DNA of 64,000 nucleotides from Vulcanimicrobiota bacterium (GTDB lineage: Bacteria; Vulcanimicrobiota; Vulcanimicrobiia; Eremiobacterales; Eremiobacteraceae), in the NCBI GenBank assembly GCA_963805945.1, contig CAWDVP010000002.1, positions 192,001-256,000 of the forward strand, written 5' to 3'. A model generated the notes under the pieces. It was not told where the DNA came from. It saw only the letters and a program-made list of their open reading frames with translations, and searched no databases. A program made the position numbers and the translations under genes. Shown here piece after piece: positions 29,405 to 34,777 of this stretch (position 1 is the stretch's first letter; each line of letters begins with the position of its first letter).

Positions 29405-30559
29405 TCAGTGGTGGGCGTGCGCGTGCTCTGATCCCGTCCGGTTCGCCCACCAGATGAGCGCCAGCACCCCCGCCACGAAGATGATATTGAGCACGGCGGT
29501 GTAGTCGAATTTGAGCTGCTCGACCTGCATGAGCAGGTCGCCCGTCGCCACCGGGATGTTGCCCGTCCAGGCGAAGGCCAACTCGACCACGAGGCCCGCG
29601 ATCACCATCGAGAGATAGAATACGCCGGTCATCGACAGCGCGAGTTTCCAGCCGTAGTACTTGCGGTATATGTCGATGAGCGGCAGCACGATGAGATCGG
29701 CGTATAGGAACGCGACGACGCCGCCGAAGCTCGCGCCGCCGTGCCACAGGACCGCAGCCAGCGGCACGTTGCCGATCGAGCACACGAAGCTCAAGATGGC
29801 GATGATCGGTCCGACGAGCGCGTTTTCGATGGTGCGCCAGAGCGGCGGCGCGTTGGTCACGAACAGATGGCCCCACCATGCGTCCGGGATCGCCACCGCG
29901 AGAAAGCCCGCTATGATGAAACCTAGGATGAGGTCGTTGCGCAACATCGACCAGTCCATCTGGAAGTAGTGCGCGACGTAGCGCCAGCCTTCGGGCGAGC
30001 GCAGCTTCTCCCCGAATGTGTTGCCGGGCGTGAGCATGTCGCCGTGATCGTGCTCGTGCTCGCCGTCCGCCTCTTCCACATGCGCCCGGCCTTCTTCGAT
30101 GACGCGCTTCGAGAGCAGCAGCCGCGCGAGCAGCACGAAGACCGCGATGAGGACAAAACCGCCGATCCACTCGGCCGCGACGAACGGCCAGCCCATGAGG
30201 CGCCACAGCACCAATCCCAGCTCGATGACGAGATTGGTCGAGGCGAACATGAAGACCATCGCGGTCGTGAATGCGGCGCCGCGCTTGAAGATCGATTTAG
30301 CCGTCGCGGCAGCCGCATAGCTGCACGAGGAGCTCGCCGCGCCCAGTCCCGTGGCGATCGCGATCTCGCGCAGACCCACTCGGCCCAGCAAGCGCGACAG
30401 GCCGTCCTTAGGGACGTATGCCTGGACCATCGCCGACGCGAGGAAGCCCAGCAGCAGCGACCACAGCACCACCCAGAACATCGCCGCGGACGCAAGCAGC
30501 CAGTGCCAGACGAACAGCACCGGGCCGGAAAGCGCGCCGAGCGCGGCGGTGGTCGACAT
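29405..30559 (-). CDS. Predicted permease (DUF318/ArsP-like)
   Basis: SSSCSY, FASTNLVIE, FVCSIGNVP, His-rich loop. Confidence 0.8.
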   Translation of the reverse strand: MSTTAALGALSGPVLFVWHWLLASAAMFWVVLWSLLLGFLASAMVQAYVPKDGLSRLLGRVGLREIAIATGLGAASSSCSYAAAATAKSIFKRGAAFTTAMVFMFASTNLVIELGLVLWRLMGWPFVAAEWIGGFVLIAVFVLLARLLLSKRVIEEGRAHVEEADGEHEHDHGDMLTPGNTFGEKLRSPEGWRYVAHYFQMDWSMLRNDLILGFIIAGFLAVAIPDAWWGHLFVTNAPPLWRTIENALVGPIIAILSFVCSIGNVPLAAVLWHGGASFGGVVAFLYADLIVLPLIDIYRKYYGWKLALSMTGVFYLSMVIAGLVVELAFAWTGNIPVATGDLLMQVEQLKFDYTAVLNIIFVAGVLALIWWANRTGSEHAHAHH

Positions 30560-30759
30560 TTGGCTAGTCCCTCTCCTTGGGGCGCGGCAAAACGCTGGAC
30601 AAGTGCACGGATTAGCCGGCCGTGCCGCAAGCGTATAGTAGGAGCAGACCGCGTTTTCTTGCTGCCGCGCGCTTCACCCGCCGAGAGGGCCTGCGAGGGC
30701 TGTACCGGCAGCGCGCGGAAAGCGTGGAAAAGTCGACATCGAGAGGAGACGCTGCGCAC

Positions 30760-31731
30760 ATGGACCTCGAGAAGCTCATCATCTACCGGGGCGGCAGTTT
30801 CGTGCCGTACGGGCAAGCCAAGGTCGGCGTTCTCACGCACGGCCTTAATTATGGCACCGGCTGTTTTGAGGGCATACGAGGCTACTGGAACGCGACGGCG
30901 GGCCAGCTCTACTTCTTCCGCCTGCTCGAGCACTACGAGCGGCTCGCGGCGTCTGCCAAGTTTCTGCTCATCGATCTCCCCGAGTCGGCGGAGAAGCTGT
31001 GCGCGCGCACGGCCGAACTGGCGCGGCGCAACGACTTGCATCAGGATCTGTACGTCCGGCCGCTCGCGTATAAGAGCGCCGAAGAGATCGGCGTGCGCCT
31101 GCACAAGGTCGATGACGAGTTCACCATCACCGCGGTGCCGCACAAGGCCTACTTCGACGCTTCCCAGGGCCTGCGCACGTGCGTCTCCTCGTGGCGGCGC
31201 ATCGACGACAACGTCGCGCCGGCACGCGCCAAGCTGACCGGCATCTACATCAATTCAGCGCTCGCCAAGACCGAAGCGGTGAGCAACGGCTTCGACGAAG
31301 CGATTATGCTCAACGGCGAAGGTCATGTGGCCGAAGGTAGCGCGCAGAACATCTTCATCGTGCGCGGCGGTGTTGCGATCACCCCGCCTGTGAGCGACGG
31401 CATCCTCGAAGGTATCACCCGGCGGACGATCATGGACTTGTGCAAGAGCGAGCTCGGCATCGAAGTCGTCGAACGTTCGGTCGACCGCAGCGAACTTTAT
31501 GTGGCAGACGAGATATTCTTGGCCGGCACGGCCGTCGAAGTGGCGCCTGTCGTCGAGGTGGACCACCGCCCGGTCGGCGGCGGCAAGGTCGGGCCTAAGT
31601 CAGCGGCGCTAAGGGATTTGTACCGAAAAGCCACGCTCGGCGAGCTCAAAGGCTACCGCCATTGGCTCACCCCGACCTACGATGTGGCGTCAACGCCTCG
31701 AATCCACCAGGCGGAAAAGGCAGCTTCTTAG
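30760..31731 (+). CDS. ilvE: Branched-chain amino acid aminotransferase
   Basis: HGLNYGTGCFEGIR, AKLTG, EGSAQNIF, ILEGITR, GTAVEV. Confidence 0.92.
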   Translation: MDLEKLIIYRGGSFVPYGQAKVGVLTHGLNYGTGCFEGIRGYWNATAGQLYFFRLLEHYERLAASAKFLLIDLPESAEKLCARTAELARRNDLHQDLYVRPLAYKSAEEIGVRLHKVDDEFTITAVPHKAYFDASQGLRTCVSSWRRIDDNVAPARAKLTGIYINSALAKTEAVSNGFDEAIMLNGEGHVAEGSAQNIFIVRGGVAITPPVSDGILEGITRRTIMDLCKSELGIEVVERSVDRSELYVADEIFLAGTAVEVAPVVEVDHRPVGGGKVGPKSAALRDLYRKATLGELKGYRHWLTPTYDVASTPRIHQAEKAAS

Positions 31732-31750
31732 GGAATTCGCGACTTCTGCA

Positions 31751-31799
31751 TTGCGGGAGCGGGCAAGCACGCCGTATAATTGGTGTGACCGGCGTCACA
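31751..31799 (+). promoter_or_regulatory. Sigma70-like promoter followed by a perfect CRP-type box
   Basis: TTGCGG-N18-TATAAT (31751-31780), then TGTGA-CCGGCG-TCACA (31784-31799). Confidence 0.65.
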
Positions 31800-31944
31800 T
31801 TGTGGCGTCGAAACCAATTGAATGCCCATTGTTGGCCCGGATCTTGAGCTGAAATGTTTGGTAGAACATAGCCAAGAGACGGTTCGCAGTGGTATCGTCA
31901 ACAGCACTTGGGGGGCTGATTCCACATCTTCAGCCTTAGTTAGC

Positions 31945-31986
31945 AAACAAAATGCGACCGCACCGCCTGGCAGTGGCGGTGCGATC
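31945..31986 (-). terminator. Putative intrinsic terminator on the minus strand
   Basis: Minus-strand RNA GAUCGCACCGCC-ACUGCCA-GGCGGUGCGGUC (12-bp stem including one G-U pair), then GCA-UUUUGUUU. Confidence 0.5.
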
Positions 31987-32036
31987 TAAGGCGTTGTGGC
32001 ATCCTCTCCGAGTTCTACGATTGCTGGAGGCATATC

Positions 32037-32198
32037 ATGGAGCTTGGTGGACACATTCACGCCTTTGCGTTATATGCTGGCGTGTTCTTCGGCCAGCTTG
32101 CACATACGCTCGAGACGCTGATCACGGGCGGGGCACACCCGGCCGAGACACTCATCACGGGCGGCGTGCATACCGCGGAAACCCTCATTACCGGATAG
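32037..32198 (+). CDS. 53-aa precursor peptide with three ETLITG cores
   Basis: GGAGG SD 6 nt upstream. MELGGHIHAFALYAGVFFGQLA-HTLETLITGGA-HPAETLITGGV-HTAETLITG. Core codons differ only synonymously. Confidence 0.85.
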   Translation: MELGGHIHAFALYAGVFFGQLAHTLETLITGGAHPAETLITGGVHTAETLITG

Positions 32199-32217
32199 GG
32201 CGATCATCGTCAGGTCC

Positions 32218-33549
32218 TCATGCGATCTCTCGGCACAGTAAGTCGACGAGCTGAGGATCGTATTGGGTGCCGGCCCGCTCTGAAAGTACGCGCAGCGCTT
32301 CCTGCTTGTTCAGTTGCGTGGTCGCATTGTGACCTGTAAGTAGGCACAAATAATCGCGGGTGATCGCGATAATGCGCGAAGCCACAGGGATGCGCGTCAA
32401 GCGCATGCCGTGTGGATAGCCAGTGCCGTCGAATGCTTCGCACTGATGTTCAACCGCATAAGCCACCTCTTCCGGAATGATGCGGGGTGCCTTGCGGAGC
32501 ACTTTTCCACCCAGTGTAGGATAGCGAAGGGCCTCTTGCTGCTGAGCGGGCGTCAAGTTAATGCCAGCTCGCAGTTCCGGAGTGAGCTTGCACTTCCCGA
32601 TCTCGTGGAATTCCGCCGCCCACGCAAGGTTCTCTAAGTCCGCCTTAACCATGCCAAGCTTGCGGCCCATCTGAACCGCAAGGTAGCGGACGTCGCCGGC
32701 GAACTGTGCATCATCAGGACTTAACAGGCCAATGAACTCTCGCATCATCTCGTGGAATTGGTTGACGACGAAATCGCGTTCATCGCGGGCCTCAACTGCT
32801 TGGATTATGCGCTCGAACATACGCGTGTGCGCGACGACGTAGTAGAAAACAATAGCCCCTAGAATTCCGCCGAAGCCGTACATCCCAGCCAAAAGGTAGG
32901 CCCAAAGAGCCGCGACAAAGCCAGCGCGCCAGTAGCGTACGAACGATGCCGGCTGGCCGAGAATTGCGAATCCTAGGATTACTAGTGCATTGTTTACAGT
33001 CTGCCAGATGATCCCAATCCCCACGACGCCGACGAGAACAAGGGGCGCGTAGAGAAAGTGCGATATTCGCGGCGCGAGGCCGAGAATAACTGCATAGGAC
33101 TGGACCATCAAGAAAACCGCTATAACAGATATCCCCAGTTGACCCGCCAATGCTGGTATCGCTTGGGCGGCTGGGCGACCGGCGGCAATCAGGCGCAAGT
33201 GAACGGCGGAAAGACCGACAACCGCAAGCGGTAGCGCCCACCAACCGACCATCGCCGTGGCTGCCGCTAGTATTGCCGCGACCGGCGCATGCACCGCGCG
33301 GAAACCTTCCTGGGGTCGCTCGTTCAGCGCGAGGAAAGCACCTACCAGCACGACGCTGATTATGGTTGCATACGAAGTGTCAAAATGCGGTGGAACGAGC
33401 ACCAAGAGTGCGGCACCCGCAATCAACAGTGCCCAATAGTAAGCGACTTTGAGTCCCTGTCGCCATGCAACAACATCTTGTTGCAGACCAGTTGCTGGAG
33501 CGCTGATCCGCTCGAGTTGCGCCTGCCCTGCCACGGCCATGACGCTCAC
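32218..33549 (-). CDS. Multi-pass membrane protein with degenerate HD-GYP domain
   Basis: Roughly 7-8 hydrophobic segments. C-terminal FHEIGK, DGTGYPHG, IPVASRIIAI, GTQYDP. Confidence 0.85.
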   Translation of the reverse strand: MSVMAVAGQAQLERISAPATGLQQDVVAWRQGLKVAYYWALLIAGAALLVLVPPHFDTSYATIISVVLVGAFLALNERPQEGFRAVHAPVAAILAAATAMVGWWALPLAVVGLSAVHLRLIAAGRPAAQAIPALAGQLGISVIAVFLMVQSYAVILGLAPRISHFLYAPLVLVGVVGIGIIWQTVNNALVILGFAILGQPASFVRYWRAGFVAALWAYLLAGMYGFGGILGAIVFYYVVAHTRMFERIIQAVEARDERDFVVNQFHEMMREFIGLLSPDDAQFAGDVRYLAVQMGRKLGMVKADLENLAWAAEFHEIGKCKLTPELRAGINLTPAQQQEALRYPTLGGKVLRKAPRIIPEEVAYAVEHQCEAFDGTGYPHGMRLTRIPVASRIIAITRDYLCLLTGHNATTQLNKQEALRVLSERAGTQYDPQLVDLLCREIA

Positions 33550-33709: not shown

Positions 33710-33732
33710 CCCGAGCTTCGCTCGGGCGCTAC
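33710..33732. repeat. REP-like palindrome, family C
   Basis: CCCGAGCTTCGCTCGGGCGCTAC, overlapping the serine hydrolase stop codon. Confidence 0.7.
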
Positions 33733-34694
33733 AGGCCGGTGGGAGAGGCCTCGGGCAGCGGGGCCTCGGTTGGCGTGGCCACCGGCAGCACCGGGGGGAC
33801 TTCCGCAGCGAGGAAGGCGTCGTAGGTCGCCCTGGAGGCCCTGCGGATAAGCCGGGCGCCGTCATCGAGATCGTCCAGGTGCGTCGTCAGCACGCAGATC
33901 ACGTACGGCGAGCCGGGCAACGCGACGATGCCGACGTCGTTGAGCGTGTCGTGCAGCGTGCCCGTCTTGTGCGCCACCACAACCCCGTGCGGCAAAGGCT
34001 CGGGCAGCAACTGGTTGTGCCGCTGCGCCGTGAGAAACGCGAGCATGACGTCGCTGGCCTGCTCGTTGATGAGCCGGCGCGTGGCGATCATGACGAGCAG
34101 GCGCATCATGTCATTGGTGCTCGTGCGCAGCTGGCGGATCGAGGGATCGCTCGCGTGAATGCTGGCGCCCAAGCGCGTCTGGGTCAGCCCCAGCCCGATC
34201 ATGGTCTGATTGATGTTCTCACGCCCGACCAGCCGGATGAGCATGTTCGTGGCCGTGTTGTCGCTGTTCGCGATCATGATCCGCGTGAGGTTGCGGACCG
34301 AGAACGTCATGCCCGCCGCGAAGTCGCACACGTCGCCGTAGCCGCAATCGCGGTCTTCCGGCAGCAGTTCCACTTGGCGATCGAGCGAGAAGCGGCCGAG
34401 CGATTCTTGCCGCAGCACTTCGACCATGACCGCGAGTTTGATCACGCTCGCCGCTGGCAGGTTCTCGTCGCCGTTGATGCTGATCGGCATGCGCCCTTGC
34501 GCGTCCGCGATCGTGATCGCGACCAAACCCGGCGTGTTATTGGCCAGGCGCCGCAGCTCGGGTTCGAGCGCGGCCATGCGAGCATCGCGCGCCACAGGCA
34601 CGTCAGGGGCCGGGAGCACGAGACCGGCGGACATGCCGCCGCCGGCCGCGATGAGCGCAGCAGCGAGCAGCATGGTGAAAAAGGCCCAACGCAT
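33729..34694 (-). CDS. Class A beta-lactamase-related serine hydrolase
   Basis: ASVIK, SDN and HKTG motifs, plus a signal or anchor sequence. Confidence 0.85.
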   Translation of the reverse strand: MRWAFFTMLLAAALIAAGGGMSAGLVLPAPDVPVARDARMAALEPELRRLANNTPGLVAITIADAQGRMPISINGDENLPAASVIKLAVMVEVLRQESLGRFSLDRQVELLPEDRDCGYGDVCDFAAGMTFSVRNLTRIMIANSDNTATNMLIRLVGRENINQTMIGLGLTQTRLGASIHASDPSIRQLRTSTNDMMRLLVMIATRRLINEQASDVMLAFLTAQRHNQLLPEPLPHGVVVAHKTGTLHDTLNDVGIVALPGSPYVICVLTTHLDDLDDGARLIRRASRATYDAFLAAEVPPVLPVATPTEAPLPEASPTGL

Positions 34695-34777
34695 ACAACG
34701 ACCACTCTTCTTGGCGGCGGCACGGGACCGCCTGCCTTTCGGCATGAATCGCGCGCTGCGTCACGAACCGACAGCCG

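Follow-up and report, generated by a model that had tools for sequence, protein, structure and literature searches.

A conserved small gene with repeated acid-initiated cores, convergent to an HD-GYP gene in Eremiobacteraceae, as a possible multi-copy peptide precursor

A short reading frame that repeats the same few residues three times, in codons that differ from copy to copy, raises the question of what selection has been preserving: a peptide to be released, a small protein to be kept whole, or the by-products of DNA turnover. Such a frame, of 53 codons and a stop, lies at 32037–32198 (+ strand) in the window analysed here, i.e. the whole stretch of 64,000 nucleotides (nt) from contig C2, positions 192001–256000 (CAWDVP010000002.1), of the 2.3-Mb, 82% complete genome of a Vulcanimicrobiota (Eremiobacterota) bacterium (GCA_963805945.1), one of a group of soil bacteria that are uncultured. 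It was delimited from the list of open reading frames (ORFs), orthologue alignments and database matches, and was found exactly where a first-pass annotation, made from the letters alone, had placed it. The small ORF is a genuine gene, and each copy of its repeated core is under purifying selection. Tentatively, it is read as the multi-copy precursor of a short acid-initiated peptide, the ligand of a neighbouring S-component-like/HD-GYP sensor; for this reading, which is possible rather than probable, we infer the cleavage, export, binding and enzymatic output.

The encoded protein begins with a leader part (residues 1–25; 32037–32111, + strand, from alignments), which is rich in His, moderately hydrophobic and devoid of Lys and Arg. 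By codon comparison, three core copies were located on the same strand at residues 26–30 (32112–32126), 37–41 (32145–32159) and 48–52 (32178–32192), the last followed by one Gly codon and the stop. The C-terminal 31 residues are built of units of 11, 11 and 9 residues, each closed by the core and a Gly. The three core codon strings quoted in the first-pass annotation were correct letter for letter, and the spacers differ as it had claimed. Within the five-codon core, at least 6 changes distinguish the three copies and all of them are silent (P about 4.8e-4, against a null in which 28% of random single-base changes in the core codons are silent); the sixth codon, for Gly, contributes one further silent change. 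Units 1 and 2 are 79% identical in DNA over 33 nt, the third copy falling under the threshold of the tool, and Tandem Repeats Finder, run on the window, reported nothing at the small gene because the DNA copies are too diverged. When the core copies of the seven genomes with available DNA were pooled, 33 silent changes stood against 4 replacing ones, and selection has therefore kept the peptide after the copies separated. The nominal binomial values for the pooled count (1e-14, and 3e-12 for the five genomes with different cores) are both overstated, because related genomes share some of the differences.

Orthologues of the small gene were recovered by six-frame search in 5 of the 6 other genomes of the window's genus, the sixth being 72% complete. 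All five have an intact frame of 53–58 codons, the same ribosome-binding site with the same spacing, and the same genomic place. The + frame of the small ORF is the only one open across all six genus genomes that hold it, and over 43 ungapped codons the changes at codon positions 1, 2 and 3 number 50, 21 and 62. The ribosome-binding site, GGAGG at 32026–32030 (+), lies 6 nt before the ATG, as taken from the sequence and the genus alignment, and its context TGGAGGC-N5-ATG is identical in 6/6 of these genomes. The earlier proposal that protein-level selection acts on this tiny ORF is thus borne out by the silent-only divergence of the cores, the codon-position pattern and the intact orthologues; stops and frameshifts were looked for in the genus orthologues and none was found, while core replacements between species affect all copies together.

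Cores of one member agree throughout or at all but one position, whereas at least 12 different cores occur among 20 members, and between species all copies of a gene change together. All that the multi-copy cores share is the acidic residue at the start and, in the middle, two positions that are mostly aliphatic, the five-residue pattern being one acidic residue, one of the Thr/Ser/Gln type, two aliphatic residues and one that is small or polar. Of the six-residue core proposed in the first-pass annotation, the first five residues stood as the conserved unit, while the sixth, Gly, is not kept in relatives. Nor does the suggested mature C-terminus ending in Gly hold in general: in most members the last core is followed by one or two variable residues, two members end at the core itself and one carries four more residues. 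The spacers, which contain Pro and Gly, are variable in both sequence and length (unit period 7–14 residues). Most other genera have a single core copy, genome G017 has 2, most of the window's genus 3, and four members have 4. Variable spacers and a copy number of 1–4 argue for independent short units and not for one folded repeat domain. A His stands three residues before the acidic residue in most, not all, repeats, and this His-x-x-acid pattern is compatible with a processing site and equally with a metal-binding or contact motif. Among 33,714 frames of 25–150 residues in the genome, no other was found with three His-x-x-acid-x-aliphatic-aliphatic units, and a tripled 5-mer occurs in 14 other frames, which have the look of low-complexity sequence read out of frame.

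Identity among copies could also be a mere by-product of slippage, unequal crossing-over or gene conversion, with repeats that have no separate function and an ORF or RNA that may be important on other grounds. Turnover of this kind has left its marks: silent sites included, no difference separates copies 2 and 3 in G003, copies 1 and 2 in G006, or copies 2 and 3 in a member from a metagenome, and G001 has two adjoining copies (period 7 residues) that resemble a recent local duplication; duplication or conversion is therefore still ongoing, and the variation in copy number agrees with it. Turnover alone, however, does not produce diverged copies whose differences are almost purely silent (33 against 4), nor does it account for the conserved frame and ribosome-binding site, so that repeats without function are considered highly unlikely. 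Turnover and selection are not exclusive, and we think that both act, duplication or conversion probably spreading new core variants. In four genomes with two core types, copy 3 uses another synonymous acidic codon than copies 1 and 2, which hints at parallel replacement in old copies; this is a single codon.

The extent of the family was determined with a profile of the six genus proteins, which was run against 1.84 billion representative proteins at E <= 0.001 and gave 19 matches. Sixteen are small proteins of 50–68 residues with the same leader and 3–4 C-terminal repeats; they include the window's own protein and one relative already found, so that 14 are further members. The three long proteins among the 19 (P0017, P0018 and P0019) were discarded as repeat noise on the strength of the two inspected, P0018 and P0019, which proved to be unrelated low-complexity repeats. 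One more member, with four repeats, was obtained from a metagenome contig. The scan of metagenome contigs yielded two true loci and one false (L032), and that of genome contigs three loci, duplicates of those in G003, G005 and G001. Scanning of the 16 members gave no Pfam family at E <= 0.1, and two members retrieved from the databases are given a name by no source. For the window protein, Pfam and NCBIfam together returned no family and the ESM Atlas no usable match, and no description of the small-gene family was found in the literature, supplements aside. Of 401 genomes sampled from the phylum, the multi-copy profile matches 6, and these belong without exception to the window's genus (1 of 116 genera).

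Beyond this genus, a profile of single-copy forms matches 19 of 29 genomes of the family Eremiobacteraceae versus 0 of 371 genomes of the phylum's other families, and a small convergent ORF occupies the same spot at all 24 family loci that have the HD-GYP gene described below. These ORFs of other genera encode peptides of 35–51 residues that are more hydrophobic, rich in His (2–6 residues) and end in a single short tail starting with an invariant Asp, G017 having two tails. The acidic first residue of the tail is invariant in 15/15 single-copy forms and begins every core in 19 aligned multi-copy forms. Their Kyte-Doolittle 19-residue means reach 1.8–2.2, which is transmembrane-grade, and AAGGAG is found at the same distance from the start of the small gene. 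Profile-profile comparison of the single-copy and multi-copy sets aligned leader to leader and acid to acid (E 1.4e-4, probability 52%); because of this alignment and the identical position, orientation, ribosome-binding site and promoter, both forms are taken as one family. Pfam searches with the 15 single-copy forms gave only two noise matches (E 0.3 and 0.72). Presence in genus g8 was scored from its two genomes, G013 (flagged unpublished) and G020, and in genus g2 from G016 (flagged unpublished), G007, G031 and G029; G013 and G016 were used as rows in three alignments, and G016 also in two further alignments and in one model. A second pair of small gene and HD-GYP gene in G001 (L081, on C32, a 2.9-kb contig) was considered as a paralogue and rejected: it shows the same ilvE synteny with the peptide type of another genus and is probably bin contamination.

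The neighbour in question, encoded convergently at 32218–33549 (− strand), is an HD-GYP membrane protein of 443 residues, whose stop lies 19 nt from that of the small gene. It was assigned by Pfam (HD_5, 1.4e-25, residues 287–434), and NCBIfam matched a NosR-type region of a phosphodiesterase for cyclic di-GMP (c-di-GMP). Full-length homologues, 33–40% identical, are present in 8 of 10 genera of the family, and in 16 loci the stop-to-stop distance between the two genes ranges from −96 to +19 nt. The conserved flanks are ilvE, for a branched-chain amino-acid aminotransferase, upstream of the small gene (30622–31731, + strand; NCBIfam 5e-106 and synteny), and a gene for a serine hydrolase of the class-A beta-lactamase fold (33729–34745, − strand; family matches and synteny), which is upstream of and co-directional with the HD-GYP gene. 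In the 97% complete genome G011 both flanks are kept around a slot of similar size that holds neither the small gene nor the HD-GYP gene. The two genes are thus present together or absent together, with one informative absence; their absence in G004, G022, G010 and G019 is uninformative, as ilvE was not found there either.

Three side observations concern this locus. The slot in G011 (L088, C3, 6061–7899; genus g6) contains two tandem copies of an element of ~440 nt and a transferase-like ORF of 316 residues. In G005, the HD-GYP gene (L037/L043, C2:644754–646078) is split into three frames, with a database protein of 299 residues, and no other small gene has, as this genome's does, a core replacement of several bases together with a spacer that lacks His; either a long-read indel error is responsible or the pair is beginning to decay. 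Two genes upstream of the small gene, at 29405–30559 (− strand) and within the synteny block, an ArsP_1-family permease is encoded that has a loop rich in His, Asp and Glu and a His-rich C-terminal tail and is weakly similar to Cu/Zn efflux transporters; a metal link between the permease and the His-rich small protein is conceivable.

Residues 1–262 of the HD-GYP protein were modelled with AlphaFold2 at a mean predicted local distance difference test (pLDDT) score of 84.4, and a sensor domain of six to seven long membrane helices was delimited at residues ~30–231 (32857–33462, − strand) from this model and VIA-align. In the VIA-align comparison, the top 15 chains were all S-components of energy-coupling factor (ECF) transporters (Z 7.7–11.8, 143–180 residues, root-mean-square deviation 3.2–4.0), led by NikM (Z 11.8), EcfS (11.3) and CbiM (10.9) and followed by PanT, BioY, RibU, BtuM, FolT and ThiT down to 7.7. 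The matches cover model residues ~30/55–231 and nearly the whole of the targets, and the next unrelated chain has Z 7.1. An ECF S-component-like fold of the sensor domain is therefore likely from the model, and ECF S-components are binders of small ligands. Within the genus, the protein is at its most variable in the sensor domain, with 0–50% invariant residues per 20-residue window versus 50–85% in the C-terminal half; the domain has no invariant His, and a word-based search with it retrieved 21 proteins, only close relatives. The HD_5 domain keeps Gly-Tyr-Pro, and the dyad position reads His-Glu, the His being invariant and the Glu present in at least 90% of 20 orthologues. Complex prediction with neighbour residues 1–262 and the small protein gave scores of 0.01 and 0.00 and counts neither way.

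According to the tentatively preferred reading as a peptide precursor, the small protein would consist of the conserved His-rich hydrophobic leader and three five-residue acid-initiated modules, which would be cut out, probably at the junction between His-x-x and the acidic residue, and the released short peptide would be the cognate ligand of the neighbouring membrane sensor. The S-component-like domain, fused to the HD-GYP domain, would convert the level of the peptide into a c-di-GMP response. Other genera would make the same peptide from a single-copy gene, while the window's genus would have multiplied the module three- to four-fold, raising the yield per transcript, and control of expression would lie with a dedicated promoter bearing a CRP-type palindrome, with the structured leader RNA and with convergent transcription overlapping that of the sensor gene.

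In the main rival explanation the small protein would not be cut but would act whole, as an accessory subunit associated with the membrane or as a modulator of the sensor, and its His-x-x-acid-aliphatic modules would serve as multivalent contact or metal sites. In its favour are the transmembrane-grade stretch and the His residues of the single-copy homologues of 35–40 residues, the metal-binding nature of the best sensor-fold matches NikM and CbiM, the His found three positions ahead of the acid in most repeats, the fixed pairing with its one joint absence, and the helices predicted by AlphaFold2. A unit length of 7–14, Pro/Gly spacers and a copy number of 1–4 nevertheless fit one defined interface badly, the leader in the window's genus stays below transmembrane hydrophobicity (peak Kyte-Doolittle 19-residue mean 1.21), and the sensor domain lacks an invariant His. 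An intact partner is accordingly regarded as a serious but rather doubtful candidate.

Several observations weigh against the precursor reading itself. No protease, transporter or modifying enzyme is linked to the locus within ~10 kb. Composition and hydropathy reveal no features of a signal peptide (Sec/Tat n-region, hydrophobic core), and the lack of a basic n-region in the leader noted in the first-pass annotation extends to the whole protein (K+R = 0). The genome encodes TonB-dependent outer-membrane receptors (8–9 Plug-domain proteins), so that a peptide would have two membranes to cross. AlphaFold2 predicts two helices for the window protein and not disordered repeats; the leader part is helical with block means of 71–83 pLDDT, and the repeat block means are only 55–63. 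The sequencing-run search found soil or aquatic DNA runs with small shares of the sequence and no RNA run. The whole block from uppS/ilvE to QueG is syntenic, which makes adjacency alone weak evidence, and the pair is jointly absent in one event only. In the six genomes core type simply tracks species relatedness, so that they do not demonstrate a specific co-variation with the sensor. Foldseek gave only weak rows for the sensor domain (E >= 0.15), several of them ECF S-components; the S-component fold is likely and not certain, because helical bundles can reach Z values below 13 by chance, and S-components are not known to bind peptides. Finally, the canonical HD-GYP dyad is His-Asp, and phosphodiesterase activity is not assured because the dyad here reads His-Glu.

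General processing and uptake proteins are present in the genome, with 4 M50-family frames and 15 SBP_bac_5 matches (the latter on C1, C2, C3, C5 and C6), all generic and without a link to the locus; as judged from these matches, 15 SBP_bac_5 proteins in 2.3 Mb suggest that the bacterium invests heavily in taking up peptides. A conserved leader ahead of repeated variable cores in one ORF is also the classical layout of a multi-core precursor of a RiPP (a peptide made by ribosomes and modified after translation), whose modifying enzymes would here have to be encoded elsewhere in the genome. That no such enzyme is adjacent, as the first-pass annotation had noted, was found again for the region between 22 and 42 kb of the window (18 neighbouring proteins scanned), ~10 kb to either side of the gene. 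Across the genus, YcaO and MNIO were found in 0/7 genomes each and a C39 peptidase in 0/1 (the window's genome), ATP-grasp, lanthionine synthetase and other classes not having been searched, and the only PqqD/SPASM pair belongs to a pqqBCDE operon. With the acid as the only residue type conserved across cores, a modified product of this kind appears very unlikely. The pqqB-C-D-E operon itself was found in all six other genus genomes (e.g. L104, in G002 at C1:1528414–1531390) and not in the window's 82%-complete genome.

A further idea follows from the resemblance of the core to the acid-Thr-aliphatic-aliphatic pattern of proteobacterial TonB boxes, namely that the peptide mimics such a box and might titrate TonB. 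The genome has the 8–9 Plug-domain receptors, and the gene of a TonB_C protein lies 7 kb from the small gene; yet the N-terminal regions of the genome's own receptors contain no acid-initiated box, many cores of the family depart from the pattern, and the small protein has no export signal, which leaves this idea extremely improbable.

Upstream of the small gene, the intergenic DNA (31735–32036) is more conserved than the gene itself. A putative promoter was recognised from the sequence and alignments at 31751–31780 (+ strand), with TTGnnn at 31751–31756, an 18-nt spacer and a perfect TATAAT at 31775–31780; the TATAAT is kept, at an unchanged position, in the genus and in other genera of the family, and the promoter was missed by a consensus scan, as the −35 element matches at 3/6 positions. 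Three nt after the −10 box, alignments and a genome scan identified a perfect 16-nt palindrome, TGTGA-N6-TCACA (31784–31799), which stands beside TATAAT in 5/6 genus genomes (a one-base variant in G002) and in most other family genera. The 2.3-Mb genome has 2 perfect palindromes where 0.64 are expected, the second lying inside a pilC-like coding region, and 2 HTH_Crp_2 matches over the cut-off. The central 6 nt of the palindrome co-vary with a downstream complement, and, as far as sequence goes, the element may serve a regulator of the CRP/FNR type as operator, form the 5′ stem of a leader RNA, or do both.

That leader, of ~250 nt (31784–32036, + strand; 208–298 nt across loci), is predicted from the genus alignment and RNAalifold to form multiple stems. 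The six genus sequences gave 66 pairs, 6 with compensatory change, and three other genera gave 40 pairs, 10 of them compensatory, including a hairpin that would sequester the ribosome-binding site. Rfam gave no match at E <= 1 in window positions 31000–33000 and, on 8 related loci, only an irrelevant miRNA model (E 0.43), while a covariance model of the leader found one match per genome, always at this locus, in 9/32 family genomes. In itself, the leader may represent a cis-regulatory RNA that has not been described before. Two other interpretations of it were rejected. An 11-nt stretch that resembles the 5′ end of tmRNA is treated as a coincidence, ARAGORN finding nothing here and the real tmRNA on another contig; and an attenuator sensing branched-chain amino acids, suggested by the position after ilvE and by the Thr, Leu and Ile of the core, has no downstream gene on this strand, and other cores lack these residues.

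On the opposite strand, the terminator scan predicted a strong intrinsic terminator of the HD-GYP transcript at 31946–31986 (−), with a 12-bp GC-rich hairpin (31956–31986) and a T-run. Its stem is conserved, with a compensatory change from C-G to U-A in 2/6 genomes, and the A-run of the + side is present in 6/6. As this terminator lies beyond the small gene, the HD-GYP mRNA is probably antisense to the whole small gene and its ribosome-binding site, and in two other genera the small gene has terminator-like sites within the coding end of the HD-GYP gene. Such an arrangement would suit a hydrophobic peptide acting on the membrane, type-I-toxin-like or antisense-controlled, in mutual exclusion with the HD-GYP operon at the RNA level. 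Convergent ends that range from 19 nt apart to 96 nt overlapping, an HD-GYP 3′ untranslated region that would be fully antisense as judged by terminator position and gene ends, and the hydrophobic single-copy forms all point in that direction. A toxin of this kind would explain neither the identical multi-copy cores nor their concerted change, however; the locus is chromosomal, single-copy and stably syntenic across the family instead of patchy, and the form in the window's genus is not strongly hydrophobic. This explanation is considered quite unlikely.

Concerted copy change, single-copy homologues, the pairing with the HD-GYP gene and the conserved promoter with its leader RNA had all been missed in the first-pass annotation. 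Ribosomal peptide signals are textbook knowledge for Gram-positive bacteria and, to our knowledge, almost unknown in bacteria with two membranes, and a literature search turned up no HD-GYP enzyme for which a peptide ligand or a small protein dedicated to it has been described. The fixed pairing suggests an undescribed pair of peptide and sensor. Extended to its full scope, the precursor reading would describe cell-to-cell or autocrine peptide signalling in a diderm uncultured phylum, in which 1–4 copies of a 5–7-residue peptide would be sensed outside the cytoplasm by an S-component-like domain co-opted from vitamin or metal transporters and read out as c-di-GMP, with species-specific dialects arising through concerted copy change and with feedback through the CRP-type operator and the leader RNA; in this entirety it is rather unlikely. 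If the reading is true, a synthesisable peptide and a sensor with an enzymatic read-out form a directly testable pair, and the S-component fold of a transporter would have been re-used as a signalling input domain. In any case, conserved genes of 35–68 codons have been left unnamed, which is an annotation gap, and identical protein copies with drifting DNA are a usable signature for finding such genes.

Among known systems, the closest documentable working analogue is that of the streptococcal SHP pheromones, and by analogy the small gene and the sensor may work alike. SHP pheromones correspond to the hydrophobic C-terminal stretch of their precursors and begin with a conserved Asp or Glu; the group III shp genes overlap the 3′ end of the receptor gene convergently (PMC13361665). 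The genes are tiny and usually unannotated, and their hydrophobic precursors lack a classical signal peptide (PMC13361665); the gene described here is similar. The likeness extends to a C-terminal hydrophobic part beginning with a conserved acid, here in single- and multi-copy forms, and, for group III, to the convergent overlap with the 3′ end of the neighbouring gene. The locus is nevertheless not a member of Rgg/SHP, because the gene beside it does not encode one of the Rgg regulators: its only matches are HD_5/HD and its product is a polytopic membrane protein, and no Rgg regulator of the helix-turn-helix/tetratricopeptide-like type occurs among the 18 neighbouring proteins. The host is, moreover, a diderm of another phylum, the module is present in 3–4 copies in the window's genus, the leader is His-rich, and in place of Eep, PptAB and Opp only generic M50 proteases and SBP_bac_5 proteins are available.

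Multi-copy peptide precursors are exemplified by the yeast alpha-factor, with its Kex2-processed repeats, and by the Bacillus Phr pentapeptides. With these the small gene shares identical short copies, variable spacers, a varying copy number and selection on the peptide and not on the spacer; it differs in lacking a Sec signal and a dibasic or known processing site (the junction being His-x-x before the acid), in being bacterial and in being chromosomally paired with a c-di-GMP enzyme. Multi-core RiPP precursors are likewise known, for example those of the microviridins (PMC5934393). Like the precursors of microviridins/graspetides and cyanobactins, the small protein puts a conserved leader before repeated cores whose sequence differs from strain to strain; unlike them, it has no modifying enzyme linked to it or found in the classes searched, and its five-residue cores share just the acidic first residue.

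Small membrane modulators, finally, are represented by MgrB with PhoQ and by CbiN/NikN with the S-components CbiM/NikM. As in those systems, a small hydrophobic peptide is encoded beside a polytopic sensor, and the fold of that sensor resembles NikM/CbiM; unlike them, the small protein has no sequence relation to MgrB or CbiN/NikN, the latter being larger and having two transmembrane helices, and its repeats and their concerted change are without a counterpart there.

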